Below are positions 6,510 to 54,230 of a DNA stretch of 64,000 bases, piece after piece. The stretch comes from Chiloscyllium plagiosum (lineage: Eukaryota). Below the pieces are notes generated by a model that was not told the origin of the DNA, ran no database searches, and saw only the letters and a program-made list of their open reading frames with translations. Numbering within the stretch: the first letter of the stretch is position 1; each line of letters begins with the position of its first letter. A program made the translations under genes and the position numbers. The DNA is taken from the NCBI RefSeq assembly GCF_004010195.1, contig NC_057718.1, positions 59,507,622-59,571,621 on the forward strand, in the 5' to 3' direction.

Positions 6510-6544
6510 CACCTGATGAAGGAGCATCGCTCCGAAAGCTAGTG
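6510..6544 (+). ncRNA. Minimal type I hammerhead ribozyme motif with intact core
   Basis: CAC-CTGATGA-A-GGAGC-atc-GCTCC-GAA-AGCT-A-GTG. Stem I is CAC/GTG, stem II is 5 bp, stem III is the palindrome AGCT. Predicted cut after A6541. Confidence 0.8.
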
Positions 6545-8575
6545 CTTCCAATTAAACCTGTTGACTATAACCTGGTGTTGTATGATTTTTAACTTTGTAC
6601 ACCCCAGTCCAACACCGGCACCCTCAAATCAATCTCTTGTCAAGAGGAAGAAGAAGGCTTATGTTAGGATGAGATGTGAAGGCTCAATTAGGATGCATGA
6701 GAGCTCCAAGTTAGCCAGGAAAGATCTAAAGGGAGAGCTAAGTAGAGCCAGGAGGGGACATGAGAAGTCGTTGGCAGACAGGATCAAGGAAAACCCTAAA
6801 GAATTCTATAAGTATATCAGGAATAACGGAATGACTAGAAATAATATTCGGGCCAATTAAGGATAATAGTGGGAAGTTGTGGTGGAGTCCGTGGAGATGG
6901 GGAATCACTAAATGAATATTTTTCATCAGTATTCACACTAGAAAAAGACAATGTTGTTGAGGAGAATACTGAGATACAGGCTATTAGACTAGACAGGATT
7001 GAGGTTCACAAGGAGGAGGTGTAAGCAATTCTAGAATGTGTGAAAATAGATAAGTCCCATAGGTCAGATGGGATTTATCCTAGGCTTCTCTGGGAAGCCA
7101 GGGAGGAGATTGCAGAGCCTTTGGCTTTGATCTTTATGTCGTCATTGTCTACAGGAACAGTGCCAGAAGACTGGAGGAAGCAAATGTTGTTCCCTGCCCT
7201 TGTTCAAGAAGAGGAGTCGAGACAACCCTGGTAATTATAGAGCAGCAAGCCTTACTTCAGTTGTAGGTAAACTGTTGGAAAAGGTTATAAGAGATAGGAT
7301 TTATAATCATCTAGAAAGGTATAGCTTGATGAGGGATAGTTGACACGGTTTTGTGAAGGGTAGGTTGTGCCTCACAAACCTTATTGAGTTCTTTGAGAAG
7401 GTGTTCAAACAGGTGGATGAGGGTAAAGCAGTTGTGCTGTATATGGATTTCAGTAAGGTGTTTGATAAGGTTCCCCCTGGTAAGTTATTGCACAAAATAC
7501 GGAGGCATTAGATTGAGGATGATTTAGTGGTTTGGATCAGAAATTGGCTGGCTGAAAGAAGACAGAAGGTGGTGATTGATGGGAAATTTTCACCCTGGAG
7601 TTTAGTTACTAGTGGTGTACCACAAGGATTTGTTTTGGGGCCACTGCTGTTTGTGATTTTTATAAATACCTGGTCGAGGGCATAGATGGATTGGTTAATA
7701 AATTCCACTAAGGTTGGTATAGTTATGGGTAGAGTTGAAGGGTGTTGTAGGTTACAGAGGGATATAGATAAGCTGTAGAGCTAGGCTGAGAGGTGGCAAA
7801 TGATGTTTAATGTGGAAAAGCGTGACGTGATTCATTTTGGAAGGAGCACTGGGCTAAAGGTAAGGTTCTTGGTAGTGGAGATGAGCAGAGAGATCTCGGT
7901 GTCCATATACATAGATCCCTGAAAGTTGCCACTCAGGTTGGTAGTGTTGTTAAGAAGACATACGGTGTGTTAGCTTTTATTGATAGAGGGATTGAGTTTC
8001 GGAGCTATGAGGTTATGTTGCAGCTGTACAAAACTCTAGTGCAGATGCACTTGATGTATTATGTACAGTTCTGGTCACCACATTATAGGAAGGATGTGAG
8101 AGCGTTGGAAAGGGTGCAGAGGAGATTTACTAGGATGTTGCCTGGTATGGAGGGAAGGTCTTATGAGGAAAGGCTGAGGGACCTGAGGCTGTCTTTGTTA
8201 GAGAGAAGAAGTTTGAACGATGACTTAATTGAGACAGATAAGATAATCAGAGGGTTAGATAGTGTGGACAGTGAGAGCCTTTTTCCTCAGATGGTTATGG
8301 CTAGCATGAGGGGACATAGCTTTAAATTGAGGGGTGGTAGATATAGGACAGATGTCAGAGGTAGTTTCTTTACTCAGAGAGTAGTAGAGGTATGGAACTG
8401 TCTGCAACAGTAGTAGACTCGCTTTCATGGAATTAAAATGGTCAATGGATAAACATATGGATAAAAATGGAATAGTGTAGGATAGATGGGCTTTAGATTG
8501 TTTCCACAGGTCAGTGCAACATTGAGGGATGAAGGGCCTGTACTGTGCTGTAATGTTCTATGTTCTATGCTCTAT

Positions 8576-9110
8576 TTTCCTTCTGGAGGGAGCTCAGTGG
8601 TGGAGGCAGAGGCAGTGACGGCAGAGACTGGGGGCCAGAGCGGTGACTTTGCCTGTCAGCCATGAGGGGGGTTGGTGTGGCTGGGCAGAACTCTGGCAAT
8701 CAGTGGCATCAGGGATGTGGCTGGGGGCTCATGGTAGCACCATAGGGGGACTCTGGCAGCCTGTAGTGATACAGCTGGTGAGCTCAGGATGGCACCGTGG
8801 AGGTGCGTGGATTGAGAAATTGAGCCCTCATAGGGTAAGCCAACACGGAGCAAACTGCATGCCAATGGCTAAAAAGGACTGTAATTTGGAACTTCTAACG
8901 TTGTTTCTTGTTTACTACTTTATACTGACTAGAAGTGTAATGTTGAACTTTTAACTTATTTCTTTATTTTTCTACTCTTTACTAAGATTTTGTATCTAGA
9001 TAAGTTGTACCTGAGATGGCACTGTGAATGGTGACATTGTAAACTTTTCATTGTACTCCCATATCCTCTGCTTGACTACATGTGACAACAAAACATAATT
9101 CAAAACAATT
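8576..9110 (+). mobile_element. Non-autonomous retroelement with a cttttca.tgtac...catgtgacaa 3' tail
   Basis: GC-rich 5' part and T-rich middle. The tail is shared with 28497-28720 (+) and 43848-46370 (-). Confidence 0.6.
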
Positions 9111-9149
9111 CTAGAAATGATTTACAAGAAGCCCTCCATCACTTATTGT

Positions 9150-9811
9150 TGTTCTGGATCAGACCAAACCCCCTCAAAATATATTAAGAAAATAGCTTTG
9201 ACCCCAACTTTTCCTTATGTTTAAAGGCAAATGTAAGGCATTGTGTTCTGGATGCAATTAGATTAGTCAAGCTACCAGGCTTGAAGTGAAACAGACTTTA
9301 TTCTTATACAGTAGTTAAAATACAAACAAAAGAAAGAAGAATTAGAATAACAACGCTACTGGAAAACTTAACACAATAATAGATAATTTAGTTACTAAAC
9401 AGCAACTGTTCCAACATAGTAACATCCCACAAACGCACCCTTGGCAAAGGCAAATTCAGTAAAATAGATCGTCTCACATGTAATTCTCTAGTCCAGGCGG
9501 AAAGAACATCAAGAGAAAACTCTGAGAGAGAGAGAGAGAGAACTCAAACATTTTGCTGTAGCAGGGCAAGACGTATGGCAGTTTCCAAAATCTCAACAGC
9601 TACTGAAAGTTAAACTAAAATCCTGGTTCTGTGGGAGATTGACACCATCCCTTATGTTGCTTCTGTTGTTCCAACTTTAAAAAAAAACCAAGGCCTCACA
9701 GCCTGTTTAGTCCATTGGCTGGGAACAGACTGCTTGGCACCCCTGCCTCAACTTCTCTTCAAAAACAAAACCAAGACAATATATACCTCTTAAAGCCATG
9801 GCATTGTCATA
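9150..9811 (-). mobile_element. Probable solo LTR
   Basis: Starts TGTT and ends ..TGTCA(TA). AATAAA on the minus strand. The first ~60 bp and an internal (GA)n match 53451-53965. No clean TSD. Confidence 0.55.
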
Positions 9812-10106
9812 TGTTAACTTGCGCACCTTTAATATCAGTGTAAACTTCCAAACACACCCATTAAATCAGAAACAAATCTGAGTAAAATCATTCGGCAATT
9901 CAGTTGAAAATAGTTGATTATCACTTTAAATAGCATTGGTGTTTCATTCCTAGTGCTGAATGCTTGTTTGAGTGTGGAAGGTTAAGGGAAGGCAATAGTT
10001 GCTACGTTGAGTTTAAAGATGACACCATTATCATCAAACCAGTGTTATGTATATATACCTTTTTCAATCATCCCATTTAGAAATGGTATGACACACTTCT
10101 AGAATA

Positions 10107-10819
10107 TGGACACCTCCTCCTACTGCGACCACAACCTCACCTCCCATCACCAAGCCATCATCTCCCAGACCATCCACAACCTCATTACCTCAGGGGATCT
10201 CCGACCACCAGTCTCCAATCTCATAGACGCACACCCCGCACCGCCCGGTTCTACCTCTTACCCAAACTTCACAGAACTGACTGTCCCCGTCGACCCATCA
10301 TCTCCACTTGCTCCTGCCTCACCAAACCTATCTCCTCATACCTTGACACCATCCTGACCTCTTGGTCCAGGATCTCCCCACATACATTTGGGATACAAAT
10401 AACCTGTGGAACGTTTCAGTGAACATCTCTGGGACACATGCACAAACACTTCAACTCCCCCTTCCACTCCGCCAAGGACAGACAAGTACTGGGCCTCCTC
10501 CACTGCCTAATCCTAGCCACCTGACACCTGAAGGAGGAATGCCTCATCTTCTCCCTTGGGAACCTCCAACTACATGACATCAATGTTGATTTCACCAGAT
10601 TCTTCATCTCCCCTCCCCCATCTTAATCCAGAACCAACCTTCCAACTCAGCACCGCCCTCTTGAACTGTCCTACTTGTCCATCTTCCTTCCCACCTATCT
10701 GAGGGCTTATGCCCAAAACATCAATTCTCCAGGTCCTCAGTTGCTGCCTGACTTGCTGTGCTTTTTCAGCGATGTACGTTTTGACTCTCATCTCCAGCAC
10801 CTGCACTCCTCACTTTCTC
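10107..10819 (+). mobile_element. Internally deleted Penelope-like element
   Basis: RT N-terminal remnants (HHQAIISQTIHNLITSGDL, RFYLLPKLH, RPIIS) joined to a GIY-YIG C-terminus and a pLTR with a broken HHR. TSD cacacttctagaata (10092-10106) / cacacctctggaata (10820-10834). Confidence 0.85.
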
Positions 10820-11010
10820 CACACCTCTGGAATAGGTGAGACTTGAACCCACATTCCCAGCTCAAAAATAAGAATATTAGCACTGTGATTCAAGAGACCT
10901 GGAATTATATGGATATTTTCTAACCAATCTGTTCAGAGATGGTATTACACACTTTTGAGGAGAGACTTGAACCAGGTGGGGACACGATCACTGTACCACA
11001 AGAGCCCCTC
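10820..11010 (-). mobile_element. Two tandem degenerate tRNA-derived SINE heads; the first is the host of the PLE above
   Basis: B-box GGTTCAAGTC on the minus strand twice. Both copies share atggta(t)(g/t)acacac and gacttgaacc...cactgt..caagag. Confidence 0.55.
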
Positions 11011-11844
11011 AGGGCAGTGTAAGGCATTGACAGACTCTGCAATCTGCCCATGACATCACCAAAAGGTGGTGTGTGTGATTAGCACCAGTACTATGCACAC
11101 TCTGGACATAAAACAGTTATTATGACACTGATGGTACAAGCATTATAACCAAATGTTTCACTCACCTGGCTGAAATTGACTGTTTTTTTAATAATCAGAA
11201 ATAATACTTTCCAACTAACTGGTGTACTTTTTATGAGACTGTGTGTGTCATAGCTGTGGAGCTATGGAGGAGGATAGATGACCGTTGTTGAAGGAACTGA
11301 AAACTCGAACGTGGTGTATAAAGAATGCTGGGCGCAGGAATATTTGAGGATCCTGTGATGTTTGATGGTTTATTCCAGTTGGAAAAGGGCAGAGGACAGG
11401 TATCTGGGGAATTCCTAGTTTGTGATCAGGGAACAGTTGTCAGTTGCTCAGAGGTTCCCCAGGCAAATGACTTTGGCAACTGACAAGCTGGTGGTTGTTA
11501 GCCCCTTGCTGACCTTTATATCAATTAATCACAAAAAGGAGCCTGAAAGAGCTTTTCGGGAATTGGGGAAGGGGCACAGGATTGAACATCATCTCATCAC
11601 AAAGTGAAAAATGCAAACAGCATTTAGCAACCAAAGCATCAACGCCATTTCTTCAGTTCAAAGTTACACAGAGAACAATCATCATTGACAATACCAGTCG
11701 GTATCTTAAGATATCCAAACAGTAGGTTTGAGATCAGTAGCAACAGATTTATCTGGTCGCAGCTTTCCTATCAACTATCTACAGTGCTATCTTAGATGAA
11801 GTTTGAAGGCAGTAGCTTCTAACAGCATTTACCAGTAGGTTTCA

Positions 11845-12141: not shown

Positions 12142-12345
12142 CATTTTTATGTTGGTAAGTTTGATGAAATTTGTCTTTAATGATATTCTGGACCAAATGG
12201 GATTGTAAGATTTGTACCCAATTTTCCTTTGCATTTAACTTATCTTTCAGTATTATTTGGGAATAAGAGAGCAATAAAGCCTTAATATCTCCTTACGTTC
12301 ATTAGCAATAATTTAGTTCATTTACAAAATAGAAAAGGAATAGTG

Positions 12346-12849: not shown

Positions 12850-12984
12850 AAATGGAAAAGGAATAGTGTTGATTGGTCGCTGTCATTACCTGGGATTTGG
12901 GCAGCCAAAACACTCTGAGCACTTCAAGGGTAAATGGTAACTGAAGCAGGTTCAGTCAGAGATTGCATTTATATCAATTAACAA

Positions 12985-15135: not shown

Positions 15136-15759
15136 GTCACTGCTTTGTTGAGTGCCTTTGTCTGTCCTCAAACATGAGCCTGAGCCTCTGGTTGCTTTCC
15201 ATCTTAATTCTGCACTCTATTGTTATTGTACCAAATCCATCCTCAACCTCATACACCATTCTTATGATGTTCAAGGAAGCTTTAGAAATAGCGTCTCGTC
15301 TTTCAATCAGGCATTTTACAGTCTTCTGAACCCAACATCACAGTCAGCAATCTCAGATGCTAAAATCTCTGCTCCCTTATATTTTAGACAGTGGCGGCTG
15401 CTAATGCTCCTGCCATTTATTGCTCCTTCAAATCCTTACCCTATTCCTTCATTTTTCTCATTGCACTCCTTTTTGTCTTGTAGTGTCATCCCTTTTATCC
15501 CTTATTCACTCATGCCTTTCAAGTATCACAGATCTTTCCATTTGTTCTTCATTCCAGTGCCCCCGAGTCTAATTTTACTGCCTCTGTACTTCCTTAATCC
15601 CTATTTGATGTCTAACTTTTGTTCATTCTGACGAGAGGTCAATAGCCTGAATGCTCTTTTCCTGATGTCCCAGAGAGCAATCTTGATTGTGGTTGGGAGG
15701 CATATGGGTGGGATTTGAGTTAGGGTTCCAATAGTAGGCAGGAATTTAACACCATAAAG

Positions 15760-16630
15760 AGAATATTGAAGAAACTGGCCAGGTATGATAGCATCTGTGG
15801 AGAGAGAAACAGAGTTAACATTTTAAATCCAATGTGACTTCTTCAGAACAGGGAGGTGTTGGAAAATGTTTTTTTTCTGTATCATCATCAGAGAGGCTGA
15901 TCAAAAGACAAAGGGGTTGTTATTGGTGGAAGAGAAAAAGAGATATAAAATGAGTGTAAATCAAGGTGCGAAAAGGAGAGAGTGGGTCCTCTGAACTAAC
16001 AACTAAGTAAACAAGGCATAAACAAGAGGAGAATGCATGGATTAGGTTGGGGACAATGTTTGAAAAATGCAGAACAGACATAAATTTCTGAAGTTATTGA
16101 ACTCAATATTGAGATCTTAAGGCTGTAGAGTGCCAAAGCAGAAAGTGATATGTTCCTAGAGCTTGCATTGTGTTTCCTTGGAACATTGCAGCAGGCCCAA
16201 GATGGAAATATTAGCATGAGAACCAGGTGGTTTTCTGAAATACCAAGGAACTGTGAGGCCAGGGTTGTTCCTATGGACAGAGTGGAGGTATACCACAAAG
16301 TAATCACCCACTCAGTGCTTGGTCTCGCCAATGGAAAGGAGATCATATCATGAGTAGTGGATTCAGTATATTAAATCAAAAGAAGCATTCAAACCTTGAC
16401 TGATGCACATTTTAAATCACTTTTTCTCTTTCTCCTCCATTAACAACTCCTTTATCTTTTGCTTTGAACCTTTGCCTCTGTGAAAAGTGAAGTTCCAACA
16501 GCTTCCAGCTCTGAAGAAGTCATATCAGACTCAAAATATTAACTCTGTTTCTCTCTCCACAGGTACTGGCAGACCTGTTGAGTTTCTCAAACATTCACTG
16601 TGCCCGTTTCCAGCATCCACTCAATTTTGC
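15760..16630 (-). mobile_element. Old Penelope-like element with inverted pLTR ends
   Basis: Minus-strand GIY-YIG remnant (LLSIGETKH..GLLQCS..GTLQP..LNIEFNNFR). The ends 15795-15850 and 16508-16562 are inverted copies with degenerate CTGAAGA hammerhead cores. Confidence 0.75.
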
Positions 16631-19606: not shown

Positions 19607-19998
19607 CAAAATACTGCTGAAGCTGGAAGTTTGAAACAAATCCAAATCCGAAGATGCGCAGGTTAGGTGAATTGGCTGTGCTAAGTTACCCACAATGTCT
19701 TGGATATACAGGCTTGGTGGATTACTCATGGGAAATGCAGGGTTATAGGGACGGGGTTGTGGTAGTGGTGGGGTGTTGGTCTGGGTTGGCTGCACTTCAG
19801 AGAGTCGGCATGGACTTGATGGGCAAAATGCTTCCACGCTGTAGGAATTCTATGATTCTTTGATTCTATAAAGATAGAGAATGTTGAAAAAACTCAACAG
19901 ATTTGACAGCATCCATGAAGTGAGAAACTGAGTTAACATTTTGAGTCTAGTACGACTCTTCTTCAGTACTGAAGACTCAAAACAATAACTGTTTCTCT
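19607..19998 (-). mobile_element. Short fold-back PLE pLTR copy split by an HE1 fragment
   Basis: Same pLTR family as 15760-16630. Minus-strand CTGAAGA-A-GAGTC..GACTC core at 19932-19969, followed by a short inverted arm. Confidence 0.65.
19647..19869 (+). mobile_element. 5'-truncated HE1-type SINE
   Basis: tccgaagatgcgcaggttaggtgaattggc... with a (TTCTATGA)n tail. Confidence 0.85.
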
Positions 19999-20741
19999 GG
20001 CCTTAGAAAATAAGGCTGGGGAAATAACAATGGAGAATCAGGAAATCGTGAGAGAGGTGAACAAATGCTCTGCATCTGTCATCATAGTAAACGACAGTAA
20101 CAGCCTTCCAAAATACTAATTAATCAAGGGGTGATTGGGAGATGGTATAAGAAAATTAAACATAATACCGATCACGAGAGAAAAACTACAAGAGAAACTA
20201 ATGGGTTTGGTACGTCCCCTGGACCTGATGGGTTGCATCCTAAGATTTTAAAGAATGTAGCTACAGAGATAATGGATGCGCTGCTAGTAAATTCCAAGAA
20301 TCTTGGAAAAGACCCTGAGGATTGGAAGACTGCCAATTTAACAGCCTTATTCAAAAAGCGAGGGAGACCAAAATAAAAGGTAACTATTGGCAAGTTAGCT
20401 CCATATCTGAAAATTTGTTGAATACAAAGGATATAATGTCAGACCATTTAGAAATATGCAATCTAGTCAAGCAGAGTTATAATGACTTTATCAAAGGGAA
20501 ATCAAAGTTGGCAAATGCATTCAAATTCTTTGAAGAAGTAACAAAGAGGATAGATACAGGATAAGCAGTAGATGTAATATTTTTGCATTTGATAAGGTAC
20601 TACATGTATGGCTGCTTAATGTGATAAGAGCCCATGGTGTTGGGGTTAGTATATCAGAATGGATAAAGAGTTGGCTAATTAATAAAAGATAGAGAATTGA
20701 AATAAAGTATGTATTTTCAGGGTGACAACCTGCAACTAGTG

Positions 20742-30264: not shown

Positions 30265-30363
30265 AGGTAAAAACAATGACTGTAGATGCTGGAAACCAGA
30301 TTCTGGATTAGTGGTGCTGGAAGAGCACAGCAGTTCAGGCAGCATCCAAGGAGCAGCGAAATC
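30265..30363 (-). mobile_element. 99-bp PLE pLTR fragment
   Basis: Close reverse complement of 37210-37308. Its 5' end is the base right after the HHR cleavage triplet. Confidence 0.85.
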
Positions 30364-31371: not shown

Positions 31372-31765
31372 ACTTGATTGGATCTATGTTTAGCTGTGTT
31401 TCTTAGTGACTTTAAAACAAAGCATCTTCCAAGAATGCCTAACTTGAAGAAGTTCTCTTCCTCTATCTATAAGGATCCCAGTGAGTCTCTTTCTCACTGC
31501 ACCCCCCAGGTCATCTCCTCTGCCCTGAAGCGCTTCAGCCACGTCCTGAAGCAATCTTGCTACCACAACCACATCTCCTTCCCCAGGGCCTGCCTACAGA
31601 ATCACTGATCCCGCATGGACTCCACATTACATTCAGACCAGCATAATTTGGACCTAAACAGAAAACACTGACTCCTGATGAAGGACTGCTGCCCGAAATG
31701 TCGATTCTTTTGCTGCTCAGATGTTTCCTGACCTGCTGTGCTTTTCCAGAACCACGCTCTTGGCT
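31372..31765 (+). mobile_element. PLE ORF N-terminus joined to a pLTR piece with a degenerate hammerhead
   Basis: MPNLKKFSSSIYKDPSESLSHCTPQVISSAL..HISFPRACLQNH..IPHGL is homologous to 54141-54230. CTGATGA..GCCCGAAA at 31675-31698. Confidence 0.75.
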
Positions 31766-36500: not shown

Positions 36501-37740
36501 ATAGAACATAGAACATTACAGCGCAGTACAGGCCCTTTGGCCCTCAATGTTGCGCCAACCTGTCATACCAATCTGAAGCCCATCTAACCTACATTATTCC
36601 ATGTACATACATATGCTTGTCCAATGATGACTTAAATGTACTTAAAGTTGGCGAATCTGCTACCGTTGCAGGCAAAGCATTCCATACCCTTACTACTTTC
36701 TGAATAAAGAAACTACCTCTGACATCTGTCCTATATCTGTCACCCCTCAATTTAAAGCTATGCCCCCTCGTGCTCGCCGTCACCATACTTGGAAAAGGCT
36801 CTCCCTGTCCACCCTATCTAACCCTCTGATTATCTTAAATGTCTCTATTAAGTCACCTCTCAACGTTCTTCTCTCCAACGAAAACTGCCTCAAGACCCTC
36901 AGCCTTTCCTCATAAGACCTCCCCTCCATACCCCTCCATACCAGGCAACATCCTAGTAAATCTCCTCTGCACCCTTTTCAAAGCTTCCACATCCTTCTTA
37001 TAAATGCGGTGACCAGAACTGTACACAATACTCCAAGTGCGGCCACACCAGAGTTTTGCACAGCTGTAGTATAACCTCATGGTTCCGGAACTCGATCCCT
37101 CTATTAATAAAAGCTAAAACACTGTCTGCCTTCTTGACAACCCTTCAGGCAGCATCCAAGGAGCAGCTAAATCGACATTTCGGGCAAAAGCCCTTCATCA
37201 GGAAACGTTGATTTCGCTGCACCTTGAATGCTGCCTGAACCGCTGTGCTCTTCCAGCACCACTAGTCCAGAATCTGGTTTCCAGCATCTGCAGTCATTGT
37301 TTTTACCTTCTTAACAACCCTGTCAATCTGGCTGGCAACTTTCAAGGATCTGTGTACCTGGACACCGAGATCTCTCTGCTCATCTACACTACCACGAATC
37401 TTACCATTAGCCCAGTACTTTGCATTCCGGTTACTCTGAATCACTCACACTTGTCCGCATTAAATTCCATTTGCCACCTCTCGGTCCAGCTCTGCAGCTT
37501 ATCTATGTCTCTCTGTAACCTACAACATCCTTCGACATTGTCCACAACTCCACCGACCTTAGTGTCATCTACAAATTTACTAACCCACCCTTCTACGCCC
37601 TCATCCAGGTCGTTTATGAAAATGACGAACAGCAGTGGACCCAACACTGACCCTTGCGGTCACTAGTAACTGGACTCCAGGATGAACATTTCCTATCAAC
37701 CACCACCCTTTGTCTTCTTTCAGCAAGCCATTACTGATCC
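36501..37740 (-). mobile_element. CR1 3' part hosting a fold-back PLE
   Basis: [26 protein letters not shown] and a (TGTTCTA)n tail at 36501. Confidence 0.93.
37145..37305. mobile_element. 161-bp fold-back PLE pLTR insertion with hammerhead motif
   Basis: Inverted arm plus direct arm. TSD ccttctt(g/a)acaaccct at 37129-37144 and 37306-37321. HHR core on the minus strand at 37171-37204. Confidence 0.9.
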
Positions 37741-40561
37741 TTGTATGCATCTGATTAAGCATGAGAGTAAATATTGCTCAAAACTAAAGGAGTGTCCATT
37801 TTGATGAGTCACTTCAAGATTGACTTTATACTAAAACACGCTTTTGGGAAATGCTCCTCAATGTTATCAAAAGTAAAATACACTGTGTTTGGATAGAAGG
37901 TGAGGGGAATACAAGGTCTATCACTCTCCACTGTTTGTGACATTACAGGTTAACAAGTCCTCCTTTACTAATGTTGTTAAGTTCAACAAATACTATTGCA
38001 ATCTCTGATGAGCTAAATACAAAATACAGCCTGTCTAGGCAGAGTAAGAAGTTAAGGAGGTGATCCCATGATTTGCATCACAATGATTAGATACTGTTGA
38101 AAAGTCGAGAAGCGGACAATAATCAAAACAAACTCATTTTTCATAATAAGGGTTTTTTTTTTTAGCAATAGATGGTTTCATTTATTAACTTCTTAGTATT
38201 GTAGAGGTTTTGAAGTGAAATCTTAACTGAAATACAGGGTAGATTTTAATTTCGAGTGGATTGCCAGCTGAAAATTGTCTGGTACTCTGGTCCATTTCTC
38301 TCCTATTACAATGGGACTGTTGCCTACTGAAGATTCAATCGCTCTTAACCTACCAGATTCATATGTGATGTGTGACGGTGAATTTTAGCATGATCCTGCA
38401 GTGAAGAAGGATTGAGGAGTGGAGAGCTGAGGAAACTCAACTTTCTTTGACCCACTCCAGCACCTCCTGGTCCTTGGCTTAGACATCCAATTACTTGTTG
38501 GGTCTTTTCTTCCTTGCCAACAGCTTCTGGTTGGGTTTCATCTCTGGAAATTCTGTGTCTGTTTCCCTGCTCAGGCCTGGGTTAAAATGCAATCATGGTC
38601 TCATTGAGGTCATGAAGCTCTGAACATACATTCACAGCTATGTAAGTACAATGTGTATATCTTCTGCTATGCTGGTAAAACCTGAACTCAGCGAGAACCA
38701 AAATGTGAAATGGAGCTGCTCTAATTTAACTGCTGCAAAGTTGCATTCCCTTTGAGTAAGTGGGTGACAATCACCCCCTTTTCTTCTTGCTTCTTGCACA
38801 TGTTACAGTTTCAAAAACAACAGAAGCATTTTACTGAAAATTTATTGACATTTCCTTGATATCCACTTTACAGTCATAAATAATTCTTTTCAGATTGAAA
38901 ATGGCATATCCAGCACCTGGGGGAGTGGTGGATCAGATTGCTGTTCTCTGCCAAGTTCTCAGGAAAAATAAATGTATTGGAACTTAAAGAAAATCCAATC
39001 CATCAAAGTGTTATAATATGTTCAATTTGATCCTAAATTAAAATTGATGATGTCGTCTTCTGCTTAAATGACAAAATATCTTGCAACTTCAACACCATTG
39101 CATCAAGAAAACCTTGGCACCTGATTAGAATACATACAATACAATAAATAACCCTGTGGCTTCGCCAGAAATATCCTCATTATATTCCTCTGCCCGTCAA
39201 ATGATCAATAACTTACATTCATTGGCATCAAAAAGATGTCACTTGATATTCATTTTTGCTCATACTAAGTGAGAGAATCAGACAAGCTGATCCTCAAAAT
39301 GTTGAGATAGACAGATTAATTGCAAATGATCAGGTCATGGATGAACCCCCTTCTCTATACAAACTGCAGTTAATATCCAATGTTGTCAATGGCAATTCAC
39401 AAGCAATAAGATGCTTCCTGTTGAATGGGAAAGGATTGACTGAGACACCCAGAACATTTCTGCAATTGTTGAGAAAAGATAGAAATTAATAAATCAAAGT
39501 TGTTTTATTTTGACCATGTCTGTTTGAGAATTCTTAAAGGAATAAAGTGAATGTGATAATAAATTTCTGGATAGTTTATTATTACACATCCTTCATTTTC
39601 TTTAAGAACATTGAAGGTTTTTCATTATTGATGGATAGTTAATAGCAACAGACAGAAATCTAATCCTAAAGGTCAAATTGTGTATGTCTGAAATTAATAT
39701 CATTAGTTAGTAAAAAATGGGAGCAGGGGTGGTCCATTTAGCCCATCCATTCTGTTTCACTATTCAATAAGATTATGGCTGATTGGATTGTGATTTTAAC
39801 TCAACTTTTCTGCCAATTAACTCCCACCAGTTCTTCCCTTTCCATAGGGATTTAAGACAGTTTCAGTCGGTTAAAGGTTACATTTTAATAGTAAAGACAA
39901 AATGGAACCACAGATGTACAAAGGTGAGCTAAGGGTGCAGGACCCAAGCAATCAGAATGATAGCGGTGGCCTCGGAAGAAATTCAGAAAGTGCCAGCCTA
40001 AACTGTGGGAAAACAGGAGAAAAATGGAAATTGCGATATGTAATGTTGTGAAATTTTGTAAAAAGCTGAAATATGCCTGTCTTCCAAAAAAGAGGTTTTG
40101 CACTTCATGCTGATAAAATTATGTGTCCTCGCATATGCGTGAAAATAAATTATTGCTTAATCTCTTTTTCGGGTTCCTAACAATTTATCATGTTGTATAA
40201 TTCACCCCCACACTCCATAATCTTGATTCCCTTACTGACCCTTTATATTAAGAAATATTTCACTCAGCCTTGATTGTATTCAATGAATAAGACTCCATAG
40301 CTCTCTGAGGAAGGGAATTCCTCAGCTCAGTGAACTTTCCCTTTATTGCTTCCTTTACAAGTTTGTTCCTCCTCAAATAAGGTAGCCAAAACATGTATGT
40401 AAGACTTCTGTGCTTTTACATTCCAACCCTCTTTGTAATTTACTTTCCTAATTACTAGCTGAACTTGATGCTAAGTTTTAGTGATTCATGTAGAAGGACA
40501 CTAAAATCCTATTTTAAAACCAAATATCCCAAGAAATTTCCACACTGTTGGGAAATGTGAA

Positions 40562-40685
40562 GTTAAAAATCACACAACACCAGTGCCTTGAACGCTAGTG
40601 CTTCCAAATAAAACTGTTGGACTATAACCTGGTGTTTTGTGCTTTTGAACCTTGTCCACCCCAGTCCAACACTGGCACCTCCAAA
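40562..40685. mobile_element. Tiny fold-back PLE of the 5389-6630 family
   Basis: The direct part matches 6535-6630, and the 5' ~24 bp is an inverted copy of its middle. TSD ttg(g/a)gaaat(g/a)tgaa at 40548-40561 and 40686-40699. Confidence 0.8.
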
Positions 40686-42401
40686 TTGAGAAATATGAAA
40701 GCATTTACTAGCATTTTCAAGACTACTGGAATCAGGTAATTAATTACTATGAGCTACTCTCACTTATTTTCAAATCTACTAGAGAATAAAAGCAGATACC
40801 TAAATTGAAATGGCTGAAACATTAAATAGTAGATCAATCTTTGAAGCTGAGTATGCAGAGCATGACTAACCATATCTACAATACTTTTAGTAACATTTGG
40901 AAAATAAAGAGCTGGATTTGATATTGGAGTAAGGTTCCATGCTAAGAGCTATTCAGAAACACAAAAGTATAGGTTTCCCAAGTGCTCCTCCCTTTTTCAC
41001 TGCTGGGCTCCTTTCTGTCACATTCACACCCAGAGTGAAGTTGTTTTCCAGCAATTTTAGGAGTAAGGTAAGCTGGGGCAGTGGAGGAGTCCAATCACAT
41101 TCGGTGAGGCTGCCTGAGTTTGAGTAGAGACTCTCTAACACTATTGAGTGAGTGCTGATTAGCCAGATCGATGTTTGACGGTTATCAGACTTGATGATGT
41201 TGGGTTGTTCAATGGCTTTGAGAGGGAAGCAAGTGTGTCACGTATTTACCAGGTAGTCTTTTAGAACATAGAGGGAACAGGCCTGCTATTGTTGATATGT
41301 ACTCTGAAGAGTACTACTCATGACACCTCTTGCAGCTTCCGAGACCTGGGATAATTTTTACTTCATTTATTCACTGAATGTGGATGTCATGGCTGGGCCA
41401 ACATCTATTGCCCATCTCTAGTTGCCTGTAAGAAGGTGGTGGTGAACTGCCTTCTTGAACTGCTGTAGTCCATATGCAGTAAGTAGACCCATTATGTCAC
41501 CAGAGATGGAATTCCAAAACACTTAGGAATGGCGATATATTTCCAAGTCAGGATAATGCGTGGCTTCGTGCTGCCGTGACAATATATCTGCTGTCCTTTT
41601 CCTTATAGATGGAAGTCATTATAGGTTTGGAAGATGCTGTCTAAGAATCTTTAGTGAATTTCTATAGTGCATCTTGTAGATGTTACACACTGTTGCCACT
41701 GCGTATGAGTGGTAGAGGGAGTGAATGTTTGTGAATGTGGAGGGATTCAAATGAGCTGCTTTGATCTGAATGGTGTCAAGTTGGAGTGTTGCTGGAGCTG
41801 CACTCAACCAGGTAAGCAGGGAATATTCCATCACATTCTTGGCTTACATTTTGTACATGGGTGGACAGGCTTTGGGGAGTCAGGAGATGAGTTACTCGCT
41901 GCTAGATTCCTCACTTTTGATCTGCTCTTGTAGCCACTGTATTTATATGGCTGGCCTGGTTCAGTTTCTAGTCAATGGTAACTCCCTGAGAGTGAGAATT
42001 CAGTGGTGGTAATGCCATTAAATTAAATATCAAAGGATGATGGTTATATTCTCTCTTGCTGACAATGGTCATTACCTGGCATTAATGTGGTACAAATGTT
42101 ACTTTCCACTTTTCAGAACAAACCTGGATATTCTCCGGATCTTGCTGCATTTAGACATGGACTGCATCAGTATCCTAGGAATTGTGAAAGGTGCTGAACA
42201 TTGTGTAATCATCAACAAACTATCACACTTCTGACCTTATGTTGGGGGGAAGATCATTGATGAAACAACCGAAGATGGAGAAACTTCTGCAAAGACATCC
42301 TGGAGCTGAGTTGATTACCTCCAACAACCATGCCCATCTTCCTATGTGTCAATTATGATTCCATCTAGCAGAAAGTTTTCGTCTTTATTCTGATTGGCTT
42401 C

Positions 42402-43213: not shown

Positions 43214-44207
43214 CAGCTAGGACTCCTTGATGCCACACTCGGTCAAAGGCAGTCACTCGTATCTCACCTCTGGAATTCAGCACTTTTGTCCATGTTTGAA
43301 CCAAGACTGGTATCTGTGAGAGTGGCCCTCTGGAGAAGACCAAGATGGTTAATCCACTTGGAACTTCCTGCTTGTAATTTTTCAATCTTGTCTAATGTGC
43401 TGTGCTCCCCCATCATTTTGGATGGGGATATTTGTGGAACCTACTCCTCCAGTGAGTTCTTTAATTGTCCATCACAATTCATGACTGGATGTGGCAGGCC
43501 TGCAGAGCTTAATCTCATAATTGTTTCTAGAGTCACTTAGCTCCATCTATCAATTGCTGCTTATGTTGCTTGGCACGCAAGTAATCCATATTGTAACTCG
43601 ACCAGGTTGACACCTCATTTTTGGGTTTGCCTAGTGTTGCTCATGGCATGCACTCCTGCACTCTTTGTTGAACCAGGGCTTATCCATTCGCTTGATGGTA
43701 ATGGTGAAGTGGGGTATATGCAGGTCCACAAGGTTGCAAATTGTGTTGAAGTACAATTCTGCTGTTGCTGATGGTCCACAGCACCTCATGGAGGCCTGGT
43801 CTCAAGTTATTAGGTCTGTTTGAAGTTTGCCCCATTTAGTATGGGATAGAATTAGAATTAGAATTAGGTTTATTGTCACCTATACTCATGTGAAAAGTAC
43901 AGCAGTACAGTGAAATGTGTACCATGTTGCCACACAAGGTGCCACCTTGGGTACAAAGTTCCGAGGTACAGATCTTAATAAAATAGATTAAGCACAAAAG
44001 TAGAGAAATAAAGAGAAAAGCTATAACTTCCACATAACAGTTCTTCATAGTATAAATTAGGAAGATAAAGAAATACAAGTTAAAAGATAAATGTTACAGT
44101 TCTTCCACAAGGTAAAAACAATGACTGCAGATGCTAGAAACCAGATTCAGGATTAGAGTGGTGCTGGAAAAGCACAACAGTTCAGGCAGCATCTGAGGAC
44201 CAGGGAA

Positions 44208-44241
44208 ATCAACGTTTCGGGCAAAAGCCCTTCATCAGGAA
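44208..44241 (-). ncRNA. Minimal hammerhead ribozyme motif
   Basis: TTC-CTGATGA-A-GGGC-tttt-GCCC-GAA-ACGT-T-GAT on the minus strand. Confidence 0.75.
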
Positions 44242-45582
44242 AGAGGCAGAGTGCCTGAAGGGTGGAGAGATAAATGAGAGGATGGTGAGGATGAAGGTGA
44301 TAGGTCAGGGAGGAGGGTGGGGGAAGGTAGCAAAAAGGCGTTCTTCCTCCAGGCGTTTGGTGGTGAGGGAGTGGCGGTGAAGGATGCCCAGGACCTCCAT
44401 GTCCTTGGAAGAATGGGAGGGGGACTTGAAATGTTGGGCCACAGGGCGGTGTGGTTGATTGGTGCAGGTGTCCCAGAGATGTTCCCTAAAAGCACTCGCT
44501 AGGAGGCGTCCAGTCTCCCCAATGTAGAGGAGACTGCATCGGGAGCAATGGATAAAATAAATGACATTGGTGGATGTGCAGATAAAACTTTGATGGATGT
44601 GGAAGGCTCCTTTGGGGCCTTAGATGGAGGTGAGAGAGGAGGTGTGGGCGCAGGTTTTTCAATTCCCCTGTGGTGGCAGGGGAAGGTGCCAAGATGGGAG
44701 GGTGGGTTGTAGGGGGTGTGGACCTGACCAGGTAGTCATGGAGGGAACGATCTTTGTGGAAGGTGGAAAAGGGTGGGGAGGGAAATATATCCCTGGTGGT
44801 GGGTCCATTTGGAGGTGGCAGAAATGTCATCGGATGATTTGGTTTATGCAAAGGTTGGTAGGGTGGAAGGTGAGCACCCGGGGCATTCTGTCCTTGTTAC
44901 GATTGGAGGGGTGGGCTCTGAGAGCGGAGGTGTGGGATGTGGATGAGATGTGTTGGAGGACATCTTTAACCACGTGGGAAGGAAAATTGCGGTTTCTAAA
45001 GAAGGAGGCCATCTGGTGTGTTCTGTGGTGGAACTGGTCCTCCTGGGAGCAGATACGGCGGAGGCAGAGGAATTGCGAATACGGGATGGCATTTCTGCAG
45101 GAGATAGGGTGAGAAGAGGTGTAATCCAGGTAGGTATGGGAGTCGGTGGGTTTGTAAAAACTGTTGGTGTCAAGTCAGTCGTCATTAATGGAGATGGAGA
45201 GGTCCAGGAAGGGGAGGGAGGTGTCAGAGATGGTCCAGGATTTAAGGTCAGAGTGGAATGTCAGGGTCAGGGTCTGACGCCTGGAGGAAGAACGCCCCAT
45301 CTTCTGCCTCGGAACACTTCAACCCCAGGGCATCAATGTGGACTTCAGCAGTTTCCTCATTTCCCCTTCCCCCGCCTCACCCCAGTTCCAAACTTCCAGC
45401 TCAGCACCGTCCCCATGGCTTGTCCTACCTGCCTATCTTCCTTTCCACCTATCCACTCCACCCTCCTCTCTGACCTATCACCTTCATCCCCACCCCCATT
45501 CACCTATTGTACTCTATGCTATGTTCTCCCCACCCCCACCCTCCTCTCATTTATCTCTCCACCCTTCAGACACTCTGCCTCT

Positions 45583-45616
45583 TTCCTGATGAAGGGCTTT
45601 TGTCTGAAACGTCGAT
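45583..45616 (+). ncRNA. Minimal hammerhead ribozyme motif
   Basis: TTC-CTGATGA-A-GGGC-tttt-GTCT-GAA-ACGT-C-GAT. GUC triplet; stem II has two G-U pairs. Confidence 0.7.
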
Positions 45617-45872
45617 TTCCCTGCTCCTCAGGTGCTGCCTGAACTGCTGTGCTTTTCCAGCACCACTCTAACCCAGAATACAGTTCTTCCACAGTCTGCC
45701 GTCTCTCCACGCTGTCGACTTCCCACAAATGATCTCACTGTCACCACACTGCTGGGTTTGAGATCTCTGACAGGCTGACTCATACAAGGCTTCTGTCTAT
45801 TGGGGAAACCCTCTGGATCACAAAACCACTGGCCGCTCTCCTCCAGACATGTGACCTCTGGCTGCTCCACTT

Positions 45873-46204
45873 GGCTTGGGCCTACCGACCGCTGGCTGAC
45901 CCACTCAGCTCAGGCCTACTGACCGCTGGCTGACCCACTCGGCTCAGGCCTACCGACCGCTGGCTGACCAGCATGGCTCGGTCCTCCCGACTGCTGGTCA
46001 TTCGGCTCGGCTCAGGTCTACCGACTGCTGGCTAACCCGCTCAGTTCAGGCCTACCGATCGCTGGCTAACCCGCTTGGCTCGGGTCTCCTGATAGCTGGT
46101 CATTCTGCACGACTCAGGTGGACCGACTGCTGGCTAACCCGCTCGGTTCAGGCCTACCGATTGCTGGCCATCCCACTTGGCCCTGGCCTGCCAACTGTCT
46201 GGCT
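45873..46204. repeat. 34-bp GC/CpG-rich minisatellite, about 9.7 copies
   Basis: Unit is approximately ggctcaggcctaccgaccgctggctgacccactc. Exact 34-bp phasing runs from 45873 to 46179. Confidence 0.95.
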
Positions 46205-46946: not shown

Positions 46947-47148
46947 AGGAGAAAGTGAGGACTACAGATACAGAGATCAAATTCAAAGAGTGTAGTGCTG
47001 AAAAAGTACAGCTGATCAGGCAGCATCTGCAGAGCAGGAGAATCAGCATTTTGAGCATTGTCCTGATGAAAAGCTTATGCTTGAAACATTGATTCACCTG
47101 CCCCTCGGATGCTACCTGACTGGCTGTGCTTTTCCAACACACTTCAAC
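46947..47148. mobile_element. 202-bp fold-back PLE pLTR insertion
   Basis: Two diverged inverted arms. HHR-like CTGATGA-A-AAGC-ttat-GCTT-GAAA at 47063-47086. Perfect TSD tcacagattaaagt at 46933-46946 and 47149-47162. Confidence 0.88.
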
Positions 47149-49050: not shown

Positions 49051-50438
49051 TAAAACTACATTTGGAAATGGTGATGGTACATTTCCATTTTGATTTTAAT
49101 TGTTCACCCATATGGAGACGGTGGGGAGGCCAGTTAAAATGAAGGTCACTTGTTAAGGCAGGAGAGAGAGGTACTAAGACCAAGTCCTGTGTTCATATTA
49201 TTGCTTGGGGAGATATATCCAATTCTTTATAGTGTTACATTATGGTATGTCTTTTACAATTAAAATAAGTAAAGGAATGAGGGTTTTCATTCAATTAACT
49301 GTTAAGTAAGACATTGCATCTATGTCTATTTTTGGCTTTTCTGATCTACTGGATGTGTCAGTTAGAGTAATATAATGCTACAGTAAGTGAGCATCATTTG
49401 AACCAGGGAAAGTGGCGGACTGGTGTTCCTTGGGGATCAGTCCTTGGACGGATAATTCTTCCAGTTTGCCTGCTTATTGGAGGTTGATAGAATTCAAAGG
49501 GATCTAGAGAGAATCAGCAGTTGTGCTAATGAGTACAGAACCATCTAGGGACTGCGGCCTGATGCAGGGAAAATCTGCAAAGAATGCAGAATATCTCAAA
49601 AAAAAGATTAAAAAGAACATTTTGCTCAGTTAATCACTAATCAATAAACACAATTTTCTAACTGCAGTTTCACTAATAACTTAGATGGAGTCGAATGCCA
49701 TATTTTTGTGCAAGTGCTCTATAGTTCTGGTAATGCATACTTAGTCTTCTAGCGAGAACATGGAACATAAGATTGCATTAATTCCTTCTTATTTAACAGG
49801 GAATATGCACTTTGAAAAGTGCTTTCATCTTGATGATTATCAAGGCAGGAATTGAACTCCTGGAGAGGAAGCTGTTGGACTGAGCAGTCTAACAACTGGA
49901 AAGTTGCTCTGGGAGACCTGGCCCAGTTTAACTGTTGGGTGTCACCAACAGTGCATTGCCAGGTGCCCACCTGAGCTGGCGATGAGAGACAGCTCATCAA
50001 CATTTGGCCAGCAAAGTCTCTGTAACCTACAGGTCTCTGGAGCAGCAGCCAGCTAAGTCACATGACAATGGGCTAAGGTGGGATTTAGGGACATTTCTTC
50101 AGTGAGACTAGGAAGCTCCTTAACCACTTCACCAATTCATAGAGGGCAGGCAAGCCTCCACCCTCACAGACCTATTTGTATAGAAGCAGGAAAGTGGTCA
50201 CTTGTCATCCACTCCATTGATTAGATTCTCCACCCCACCACCCCTGCCCCCAGGCACCAGTGCACACTTTTGCATTGAATACAACTTAGTCACATCTAAT
50301 ATTTTACAACTCCAACCACAATGAATTTCAAGTTGACATTCAGCACTATCAGAACTTGAATGAGCTGCCAGCCCAGAGACAGTGTAAACTCCACTAGGCT
50401 ATCCTGATTTACAGGAAGAAGCTCATAATGTTTTGTAG

Positions 50439-50653
50439 CTGAAAATGTGTTGCTGGAAAAGCGCAGCAGGTCAGGCAGCATCCAGGGAACAGGAGAATCG
50501 ACGTTTTGGGCATAAGCCCTTCTTCAGGAATGAAGAAGGGCTTATGCCCGAAACGTCGATTCTCCTGTTCCCTGGATGCTGCCTGACCTGCTGCGCTTTT
50601 CCAGCAACACATTTTCAGCTCTGATCTCCAGCATCTGCAGACCTCACTTTCTC
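50439..50653. mobile_element. Young fold-back PLE pLTR insertion: 90-bp palindrome arms with hammerhead-derived cores
   Basis: Arms 50437-50526 and 50531-50620 are 89/90 complementary with a GGAA loop. 17-bp direct repeat ctcataatgttttgtag at 50422-50438 and 50654-50670. Confidence 0.95.
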
Positions 50654-51609
50654 CTCATAATGTTTTGTAGACTGGAACAGTTAAATCATTTCTCATAATC
50701 TTCCCTATGGCCGAGTCTAGACCTCTGTTAACTCTTTTCACTGTGTAATCACCCATATAGTAAGCACCATTGACATGCTACAGCTGGCAGGCAAGCATAA
50801 ACATGTTTACGTGTTTGAGCATAATTGGTGTTAACAAGCCCTTAAGAGAAAATAAGTTTTTATTGGATTTGCCCATTAAATCAATTTACAATCCAGGAGA
50901 GTTTCGGCAGATTGGGCAAGATTTTGAAAATATTTTCTCCCAGCTAAATCTTTTCACACTAAAACAGACTTAGCAGATATTAGCTCTATCCTAGAGAGGA
51001 ATTTCACATGGTCTTTGGTGCTCATCCTTATGTTAGGTGCTTTGAATCTTCAGACATCTGTTTCCTCTCAGAACATTTTTCCTGTTCCCAGTTTCTTTGT
51101 CTTGGTCACACCTACTCTGATGACCTTTTACCTGAGCCGAAGAGATGCTGCTAGACAGAATCCTTGGTTAGTAGGAAGTGCTGTTAATGTAGATAAGGAA
51201 AGCTAATGTTTCCAGGCATCGGGTGAAAGAATGGGTAAATTTCTGCAATGAGATGCCATACTCAAATATCGCTGCACACTCTGCATGAAAACACAGTATT
51301 GACCTGTTTTTCTCAGACTTTTTTTGTTGAAAGATAACTTTACAAATAAATAAATGATTGTGGTCAACTTACCCTAGCTGAATAATAACACAATATCAAA
51401 CTCATTAATGTCTGATTGACCCGATATTTTTGGTATCTTATCTTTGTGTTTAAATATTACAGTGTATAATACTTTAGAAACTTGCCTGTATGGAGAAAAG
51501 TTAAATTCTGGCAATCAGTACCAGCCCAGCTAAATATGGGCATCCTCATAATCTCAGAACTCCTCCACAAACTCTCCCCTCTGAGGTAAGATAGGTAGCC
51601 CACCATATT

Positions 51610-53450
51610 TATTTAACCATGTATGGACATCACTGTCCTGGCTAGCATTAATTGCCCTTCTCTAATGGCCATTGAGAAAGTGCTAGTGAGCTTCCCTCAC
51701 ACTGCAGTCTATTTATTATAGGTAGACCATCAATACTGTAAGGGAGAGTGTTCCAGGGGTTTGACCCAATGACACTGAAGGAGGGGCTATATGTTTCCAA
51801 GTCAAGATAGTGAGTAGCTTGGAGGGTAGTGGTGTCACCATGTATTTGTTCCCTTTGTCTTTTTGGATGGAAGTAGTTGTGGGTTTAGAAGGTTTTGTTT
51901 AAGGAGCCTTGGTAAATTACTGCAGTGCATCTTGTAGATGATGCATATGTTTCTACTGAGCGTCGGTGGTGGAAGGAGTGGATGCTTGCGGATGTGGTGC
52001 TAACCAAGTGGGCTGTTTTGTCCTGGATAGTGTCAAGTTTCAAGAGTGTTGTTGGGGTTGTACTTATCCAGGCAAGTGGGAAATATTCCATTACACTCCT
52101 GATTTGTGCCTTGTAGGTAGTGGACAGGGTAGTGGTATCAGGAGGTGAATTACTCACTACAGTATTTCTAACCTCTAACCTGCTCTGCATTTATGTGGTG
52201 AGCCCAGTCAGTTTCTGGTAAATGGTAGCTCCCAGGATATTGATAATGGGGGATTTAGTGAGGGTAATTCATTGAATGTAAAGACGGTTAGATTCTTTCC
52301 TGATGGAGCCAGTCATTGCCTGGAATTTGTGTGCTGTGAATGTTACTTGTCACTTGTTAGCTCAGCTTGGATACTGTCCAAGGCTTGCTGTGTTGATCAT
52401 GGACTACTGATGAGTCATGATGGTAAGGAGCCTTTTGCAGTCGACAAACATGCACATCTTACGATGGCGGGAAGCTTGTTAATGAAGTAGCTGAAGATGG
52501 TTAGGCCATGAACTTACTTGAAGGAACTGGGACTTTTTGCGTCACAGTGAAAATGTCCCTATCGCTGAGAAGACCTGGGATCAAGTTCTTTCACCTGGAT
52601 GAGTTGTTTAGAAATACCTCCCCTGAGTAATTCCTGCAGAGATGTCTTAGAGCTGAGATGTCTAACTTTCAACAAGCATTACTGTCTTACTTTGCGCCAA
52701 ATATGACTCCAACTGAAGAATTTTCCACATGATTTCCATTAACTGTAGTTTTGGCAAGGCTCCTTAGTTCCACACTCAGTTAAATTGGGTCCTGATGTCA
52801 AGGACAGTCACTCTGACCTCACTTCTGGAATTCAGCTCTTCTAACAATATTTGCACCAGGGCTGTAATCCAGTCAGGTGCTGAGTGACTGTGACAAAACA
52901 CAAAAACTGGGCATCTGTGAGCAGGTTACTGCTAAACCAGTACAGCTTGATAGCACTGTTGATGACATCTTTCATTACTTTACTGATGATCCAGAGTAGA
53001 CTAATGAGATAGTAATTGACAGGGTGGATTTGTGCTGATTTTTGTGTACAGGGCATTTCTCCCACTTGGTCTGCTGTAAGTGTTGTTACCATAGCGCAGC
53101 ATGGTGAGAGATGCTACAATTTCTGAAGCACATGCCTCTAATATTATTGTTGAAATGCTGTTAGAATGCACAGCCTTTGCAATATCTCCTGACTCCAGCC
53201 TTTTCTTGATATCATGTGGAGTGAATTGAATTGGCTGAAAACTGGCTGGGAACTTCTAGTGAAATATTTCCACTGGGATGGGCATTTCTGGCTGAAGATT
53301 GCTGTGAATATTTCAGCCTTATATTTTGTATTGATGTGCTGGGCTTCCCCATTGGTGATAGTTGTGGATCCTTCTCCTTCAATGAGTTATTTACTTGTCC
53401 ACTAACATTCACAACTGAATGTGCAGGAATGCAGAGTGTAGATTGGAACT
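51610..53450 (-). mobile_element. Old CR1/L2-group LINE (family B), with a small SINE-head-like insertion at about 52530-52620
   Basis: LSTTYKAQIRSVMEYFPLAW..KLDTIQDK; collinear with 41370-43520. Confidence 0.85.
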
Positions 53451-53965
53451 TGTTATGGACCAGGCCAGACCCCCTCAAAATATTTCAAAAAAGTAGCCGA
53501 GACCCTAACTTTGCTAGTTGTTTTAAGCAGGTGTAGAGTGGATATTCTAGGAGCTGACTCAACCACTTAGTTTTAAACAAAACAGAATTTATTTGCAAGA
53601 TTACTGAATGAAACACAAATGAAAGAGAACAGAATATAGCATAACAACCTATCCAAAAACCTAACATATGATGCTGTTCCAAATTCTTGGAACAATCCCG
53701 ATAAACAACCCATGGCACAAAAGATAAAAGCAAACACAGGGTCTTACAGGAGAGAGAGAGAGAGATGGCAGAGGGACTCCTTCTTCCAAGTAGCTTTTTC
53801 TTGGACCAGCTTAAACCAAACCAGAGAAAGCTGAGCTGGGAGAACTGGCAACTCCCCTTTCATTGTACAAGTGTGTTTTTTTATTTGAAAGCCCTTTTCC
53901 TGAGGCAGTATCTGTTAGCTATAATCAAATTGGCCCTAAAACCCATCCAAGTCAGACCTATCGGC
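53451..53965 (-). mobile_element. Probable LTR related to 9150-9811
   Basis: Starts tgttatggaccaggccagaccccctcaaaatat and has a (GA)n run. The far end is cut by a PLE. Confidence 0.55.
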
Positions 53966-53969
53966 AACT

Positions 53970-54230
53970 TGATGTCTTGGGCAAAAGCCCTTAATCAGGA
54001 ATGATTTTCCTGCTCCTCGGATGCTGTCTAAGCTGCTGTGCTTTACCAGCACCACTCTAATCTAGACTCTGATCTCCAGCACATGCAGTCCTCGCTTTTG
54101 TCTAGTTGATTTTAACCTTACTGCGAATCCTCTTCCAAGGATGCTTACCTTGAAGAAGGTCTCCTCCTCTCGCTACAAGAATCTCAGTGAGTCTCTCTCT
54201 CACTCCAACCCCCAGGTTGTCTCCTTTGCT
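53970..54230 (+). mobile_element. Fold-back PLE pLTR followed by the start of the PLE ORF
   Basis: Inverted degenerate HHR arm at 53970-54002 and direct arm from 54003. ATG at 54141 gives MLTLKKVSSSRYKNLSESLSHSNPQVVS. Confidence 0.8.

Follow-up and report, generated by a model that had tools for sequence, protein, structure and literature searches.

What are the small, hammerhead-like motifs that recur about a dozen times in one stretch of shark DNA, from which RNA were they copied, and do they still cut? We addressed these questions in a 64,000-nucleotide stretch of the genome of Chiloscyllium plagiosum (contig NC_057718.1, positions 59,507,622 to 59,571,621; hereafter the window). The motifs are minimal hammerheads of the end repeats (pseudo-long terminal repeats, pLTRs) carried by Penelope-like elements (PLEs), and their ribozyme class is already known; minimal hammerhead ribozymes (min-HHRs) in the pLTRs of metazoan PLEs were described in 2014 (Cervera and De la Pena; PMC4209133). 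We consider it probable that most copies are short, dead inserts, likely derived from uncut, capped front-end RNA, and that the ribozyme probably cuts a minority of molecules. What stands out here, within that known class, is the unusually large load and the signatures at the insert ends.

A strict hammerhead descriptor (CUGANGA, a stem II of at least 4 bp, GAAA..UH) matched the window five times, whereas 200 dinucleotide shuffles gave 0.28 matches on average and never more than 3. The core elements CUGANGA and GAAA..UH stand in type I order, both in the window and in the genome-wide pattern, and all five strict matches carry an extra base between A9 and G10.1. A covariance-model search of the window with Rfam gave no hammerhead match at E values up to 5, presumably because the motif is smaller than the Rfam hammerhead models. 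We regard as negligible the chance that the motifs are random matches or assembly artefacts. Assembly gaps do lie inside these elements, but a general intact-core pattern matched 140,744 times genome-wide as against 28 for a reversed-pattern control, the inserts have target duplications, and the motifs are present in independent runs; the shuffles and the reversed control refute such a reading.

The copies in the window are given below. Positions within a copy are counted from the predicted cut, +1 being the first nucleotide after it and -32 the first base of stem I in family A.

6299-6631, plus strand: family B pLTR copy, with upstream 3' untranslated region (UTR), hammerhead, a hexamer resembling a poly(A) signal about 10 nt past the cut, and a long tail (+93).
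6510-6544, plus strand: intact family B hammerhead; stem I CAC/GTG, core CTGATGA, extra A, 5-bp stem II, GAA, AGCT, H17 = A at 6541.
10702-10820, plus strand: family A stub starting inside the core (without CUGANGA), G12 changed to A.
15758-15855, minus strand: old, decayed family C copy.
16501-16620, plus strand: old, decayed family C copy.
19876-20000, unstranded: family C copy with a short inverted arm; core at 19966 (minus), stem II GAGTC/GACTC, G12 changed to A.
30266-30363, minus strand: family A1 copy lacking the hammerhead because it starts exactly at the predicted cut (+1).
31673-31755, plus strand: family A stub; motif at 31675, a stem II mismatch, stem III ATGT.
37144-37307, unstranded: family A1 head-to-head pair; minus arm (37201) with a full core but ATGT, plus arm from -7.
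40561-40696, unstranded: family B pair without a hammerhead core.
44111-45679, minus strand: 5'-truncated Penelope-like insertion; inverted 5' arm at 45358-45679, 15-nt target duplication at 44095-44109 / 45679-45693.
44208-44242, minus strand: family A1 hammerhead with intact core; C3 at 44238, H17 at 44211, stem I of just 2 bp.
44308-44619, minus strand: putative GIY-YIG endonuclease fragment (Pfam E 0.037, below the cut-off; Atlas score 0.96 to GIY-YIG clusters).
44830-45174, minus strand: putative C-terminal fragment of reverse transcriptase (RT), with 54,058 first-look candidates genome-wide.
45582-45617, plus strand: family A1 hammerhead of the inverted arm; motif at 45586, two G-U changes in stem II.
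46947-47139, unstranded: older family A head-to-head pair; long and short tail, 14-nt duplication, decayed core at 47063.
50437-50655, unstranded: young family A2 head-to-head pair; perfect hairpin (-172.8 kcal/mol), both arms without an intact core.
53960-54098, unstranded: family A pair; minus arm from -32, decayed, tail lost; plus arm from +1 (54003).

The motif is thus present above chance at the sites listed in the original prediction, but just two of these, with C3 at 6513(+) and 44238(-), are fully intact, the others being altered in core or stem or truncated at an inversion junction. At 47063(+) the G10.1-C11.1 pair and the palindrome are both lost, and neither arm at 50497-50560 is intact, because the minus arm carries A for G12 and the plus arm lacks C3. 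The forms near 10700, 15810, 16508, 19932 and 53970 that had been called decayed are true remnants, and the copies at 30266-30363 and 40561-40696 had been overlooked. We recognised no host exon within the window.

At least three families had been proposed; we distinguish five (A-E), whose stem pairs were read by script from natural copies (decayed ones only for C, one copy each for D and E), because MAFFT misaligned stem II across families. The core is kept while the stems change pairwise, as had been claimed: position 1 of stem I is C-G, C-G, T-A, T-A and A-T across the five families, and stem II varies in both length and sequence. Stem III is the palindrome ACGT in families A, C, D and E and AGCT in B; the self-complementarity noted earlier for the best copies is evident in the AGCT at 6513(+), with ATGT in 31675(+) and 37201(-). 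The pair G10.1-C11.1 is G-C in 107 of 136 family A copies and G-T in 18. A stem II read as AAGC/GCTT is most readily taken as a true subfamily change, GAGC/GCTC, plus two later mutations; the A-T pair of this subfamily occurs in 9 of the 136 copies (Fisher p 1e-7, the copies not being independent). Family D has the core TTGA(C/T)AA (L143:7009-7051 and two decayed copies, three in all, one at an inversion junction), which is the U3-A8 covariant reported for Schistosoma. The family E hammerhead (L207:334-379), in which stem II has 7 bp and the extra base is T, falls outside the genome-wide pattern.

These features are those of the published min-HHRs, which share the type I core, the extra nucleotide between A9 and G10.1, the G10.1-C11.1 pair, the palindromic stem III, covarying families and mostly dispersed single or opposite-strand copies (PMC4209133). 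The shark motifs differ from them in a shorter stem II (4-5 bp in A-D), a weaker stem I and their number, ∼140,000 cores against ∼4,000 in coelacanth and ∼9,000 in Xenopus, although the descriptors differ. Supplementary file 2 of that paper names no shark.

A PLE origin and a minimal type I architecture, both suggested by the original prediction, are supported by the core, by stem III and by the RT/GIY-YIG remnant. In the insertion at 44111-45679, fragments of the RT C-terminus and GIY-YIG are followed by the hammerhead and the tail, a layout that matches known PLEs. RT precedes the C-terminal GIY-YIG on the minus strand (45174 to 44308), the RT core being present in fragments only, and copies related to the RT fragment at 44830-45174 have a YIDD motif just upstream. 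Searches of the RT fragments against PDB and Pfam gave nothing clear; the putative domain calls are weak one by one, with Pfam below its cut-off, yet concordant. The inverted pLTR, the optional tail and the target duplication are those of an endonuclease-positive PLE. This association of RT and GIY-YIG was read in the family A1 insertion.

Non-LTR retrozymes (LTR, long terminal repeat) likewise carry PLE-related type I hammerheads at very high copy number (PMC7229834; 10.64898/2026.07.22.740005). They are, however, direct tandems with canonical ribozymes, whereas the shark copies are dispersed or inverted stubs; the window has no direct tandem array, its copies being single or inverted. In axolotl, 126,247 canonical motifs were counted in a much larger genome, so that the density here is about eight to ten times higher, with differing descriptors. 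Rare retrozyme-like direct tandems were seen elsewhere, at L215:2286-2485 (199-nt spacing) and L217:5915-5965 (50-nt spacing). Beside a Penelope insertion, L215:458-1828 contains an open frame of 457 codons that looks like a retroviral-type pol.

We then asked how large the load is in the 3.56-Gb genome, using in addition a sample of 1.33 Mb in 23 blocks, one of which includes the window. A 27-nt family A pattern had 57,385 matches genome-wide, and the 140,744 matches of the general pattern bear out the very large ribozyme load that had been predicted. The sample contained 53 pattern matches, 48 with stem II and the palindrome; 41 of these also had a stem I of at least 2 bp, and 15 of at least 3 bp. 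Scaled up, this corresponds to a plausible motif every 25-33 kb, ∼110,000-127,000 in all. The earlier figure of one motif per 5 kb is right for remnants, since families A and B, stubs included, amount to 306 copies in 1.33 Mb (one per 4.3 kb); intact cores number ∼40 per Mb, and the functional density had been overstated about five-fold.

Among 136 family A copies that span the core, 43 are intact and 93 broken. A CpG transition at C11.1-G12 or in ACGT is present in 79 of the 93 broken copies, and such transitions are the sole changes in 23. CpG sites have changed in 22% of cases, other core sites in 2-7% and tail sites in 2.5-4%. We looked for selection on the cores of the copies and rejected it: outside CpGs, G/C sites had changed by 7.4% in the core and 4.3% in the tail, and A/T sites by 2.0% and 2.5%, with no sign of purifying selection, the G/C excess in the core being confounded by junction effects. 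Conservation presumably acted on active elements rather than on inserted copies, because the latter decay at CpGs and their core is not spared.

The 5' ends of the inserts bear on the RNA from which they were copied. A pile-up at the cut was rejected, as none of the ends of 44 A2 copies, found by a downstream anchor, lies there: 22 fall at -37..-28, 14 at -27..-14, 2 at -13..-2 and 6 farther upstream. Genome-wide, 33,820 A2 matches contain +1..+21, 30,083 extend to -13, 21,579 to C3 and 6,010 to -53; the counts stay high from +1 to -13, so that copy survival does not drop at the cut, although the patterns differ in degeneracy and the ratios are approximate. A2 copies most often begin on the 5' strand of stem I, and we take the surrounding sequence to resemble an Initiator; family B ends cluster at the equivalent relative position. 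Where a templated C does not precede the A2 start, the base in its place is G in 10,476 of 17,743 cases (59%, against 26% expected). Among the first 30 loci, an extra G was present in 11 of 20 with unique flanks and in 9 of 10 at inverted junctions, the latter partly inflated by junction microhomology; we interpret this G as a copied cap. A splice acceptor as the 5' boundary was rejected, the upstream flanks being unique or inverted arms with no common exon. Most inserts were likely copied from uncut capped RNA, because their 5' ends pile up at the first bases of the ribozyme, often behind a G, and not at the cut. In L253, the inferred start is the exact point at which an A1-type upstream UTR meets an A4-type hammerhead, as a template jump from the cap would produce.

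The 3' ends are bimodal, at about +60 and +98 in family A and about +55 and +93 in family B. We found 162 candidate head-to-head pairs, 69 of them with a duplication of at least 8 nt (a single locus of another repeat accounts for three rows, and chance may explain two or three of the 8-nt matches), and 67 of these 69 combine a long with a short tail. This rule agrees with what was shown for the Anolis Poseidon element PAc (Frangieh et al., 2024; PMC11167929), namely two sites of RT initiation and nicking of both strands; that element also has its hammerhead at the pLTR-ORF (open reading frame) junction and uses uncut RNA as its main template, the two internal RT starts setting the tail. The shark adds genomic copies that record the 5' end, the long-plus-short rule and joins of U6 at the cut.

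The arms of inverted pairs mostly carry the same subfamily variants, and the pairs fold into long hairpins. Two RNAs per pair, which would explain the dimer palindrome, were rejected as a rule in view of the shared variants and of L289 and L311, in each of which both arms are fused to U6 and hence come from one RNA; L227 is a possible exception. Inverted pLTR insertions described earlier (Arkhipova et al., 2013, PMC3846280; Craig et al., 2021, 10.1101/2021.04.23.441226) likewise have a head-to-head 5'-truncated copy, a tail at one end and a target duplication, and self-priming on an antisense template was proposed for them (PMC3846280). The position of the sense start, the extra G and the double U6 arms would fit two primings on one sense RNA better than self-priming. 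The palindromic pair at 50477-50581 scores weakly against microRNA precursor models, and hairpins of this kind, in thousands, could feed small-RNA silencing.

Hammerhead cleavage leaves a 5'-OH end. From 48 U6 matches, 40 stretches were examined, and four had U6 joined to family A at exactly +1. With offset-tolerant patterns (31 offsets), the join was at +1 in 7 of 7 family A junctions (six loci) and in the single family B junction; in all, eight loci, L274 included, have U6 joined at +1, and the joins lack microhomology. These fusions suggest, from sequence, that the motif cuts occasionally in vivo, in the germ line, an argument that is indirect but specific. RtcB joins the cyclic phosphate of U6 to 5'-OH RNA, and U6/LINE-1 (long interspersed element 1) chimeras arise in this way, the U6 3' end being joined to retroelement RNA that is then reverse-transcribed (Moldovan et al., 2019; PMC6789731). 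Their junctions are variable, whereas ours are fixed at the predicted ribozyme cut, and RtcB may be involved here too.

Could the structure instead be kept as a promoter, protein-binding or RT-pausing element that hardly ever cuts, with U6 joined by a nuclease or template switch at its boundary? We consider this improbable. In its favour are the origin of nearly all inserts in uncut RNA, the overlap of the start site with stem I, and Naiad elements, which are reported to proliferate without a canonical hammerhead; but unrelated families retain the catalytic core while their stems covary, U6 is joined at the exact bond in two families of different sequence without microhomology, and a vertebrate homologue cleaves core-dependently (PMC11167929).

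Rather, we favour occasional cutting of an RNA that is mostly copied uncut. The first base of stem I, which in family A is -32, would serve as the transcription start. The element's protein would nick both target strands ∼8-17 nt apart and prime at two internal sites, ∼+60 and +98 past the cut, so that one arm is short and the other long; both would be copied from one RNA, halt at or near the cap and be joined head to head. Cutting, probably as a double hammerhead or aided by protein, would leave a 5'-OH end, and an RtcB-type ligation could attach this to RNAs ending in a cyclic phosphate, U6 among them. The inserted copies would then decay, chiefly at CpGs.

Several observations weigh against this scheme, in addition to the partial inflation of the extra G and the approximate survival ratios. 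A full-length element was not recovered, because its long frames were assembly gaps. In most family A copies, stem I consists of 2 bp and a U-U mismatch. There is no excess of plain copies that start at +1 (2 of 163), and the duplication-bounded pair in L227 (3502(-), 4700(+)), which lies across an assembly gap, has arms of two subfamilies. U6 joins are not specific to ribozyme cuts, because U6 is also fused to two internal positions of the endonuclease region (L284, L288) and to many short interspersed element (SINE) and other starts. It is fused to, or just before, the start of what we take to be a tRNA-like SINE in L278, L279, L282, L287, L290-L297, L299, L307 and L308, and in L275 it is followed by presumably tRNA-like sequence.

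RNA was available as a single-cell poly(A) run of a related species, of which 2% was read and which would miss most cut molecules. Reads lie on both strands and run across the cut without a pile-up of ends, a weak test; the account of the Anolis element likewise gives no RNA reads ending at the cut (PMC11167929). The original prediction held that intact copies could cut host transcripts, and a genome-wide self-cleaving load that cuts or destabilises host pre-mRNAs might indeed be expected from ∼110,000-140,000 intact-looking cores, with copies in the relative's poly(A) RNA on both strands, with U6 fusions pointing to some cutting and with retrozymes reported to be depleted in Xenopus genes. 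A same-strand neighbour lies within 2 kb of 10 of 51 cores, so that cis dimers in pre-mRNA are possible, and cleavage as dimers is the published model for PLE hammerheads (PMC4209133). Against this, a metazoan monomer was inactive and dimers were little active (PMC4209133), the Anolis motif needs the element's protein (PMC11167929), the relative's reads do not pile up at the cut, and CpG decay erodes the copies. An inverted arm lies directly upstream in 29 of 44 young A2 copies and would sequester the core. Routine cutting of host transcripts is therefore unsupported, and we think such a load quite unlikely.

Among the same reads, 1,168 from family B pass into non-genomic poly(A) ∼28 nt beyond the cut, behind AATAAA/ATTAAA. 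This poly(A) site lies upstream of both RT start sites, so that a linear monomer could yield only short inserts. The ribozyme might then chiefly release and circularise unit-length RNA: a transcript starting at -32 and polyadenylated past the downstream cut would hold two hammerheads, be cut twice and be ligated, and long inserts would come from circles. The U6 fusions show that the cut end can be ligated, and a circle was proposed in PMC4209133. But circular junctions did not appear, a subfamily switch at the cut is not clear in the long copies, these copies are explained equally by tandem read-through or by template jumps, no such poly(A) site was found for family A2 in the relative's reads, and core mutants did not impair insertion in vitro (PMC11167929). 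We hold circularisation as the chief role to be possible but on balance doubtful.

Outside the PLE copies, the window contains an array of nine to ten 34-nt GC-rich units at 45819-46203, directly beyond the Penelope insertion, and LINE remnants at 4121-5282, 7826-8413, 54237-54983 and 59650-60279, comprising Pfam RVT_1 RT fragments and a GDSL-like ORF1 fragment.

In the open-access literature, we found no paper on shark Penelope hammerheads, capped Penelope starts, U6-Penelope chimeras or pLTR polyadenylation, although a further supplement of PMC4209133 and the preprint supplements may list shark motifs. Whether metazoan Penelope hammerheads cut in vivo, and to what purpose, is stated to be open in PMC4209133, PMC11167929 and 10.1101/2021.04.23.441226. 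More than 100,000 intact-looking copies, whose ends predict a start at -32, a cut at +1, two RT starts and one RNA per pair, make the Penelope cycle testable. More speculatively, and in our view rather unlikely as a whole, the pLTR may resemble a retroviral R region that is nearly all hammerhead: RNA would start on the first base of the ribozyme and, in family B, be polyadenylated 28 nt past the cut; uncut RNA, copied twice from two internal starts, would give hundreds of thousands of cap-marked head-to-head stubs, and cut RNA would use its 5'-OH for ligation, accidentally to U6 and, as its proper function, to its own 3' end, the latter yielding a circular template for long copies. If this were true, the whole Penelope cycle, in vivo cutting by a minimal hammerhead included, would be preserved in the genome as a fossil record.

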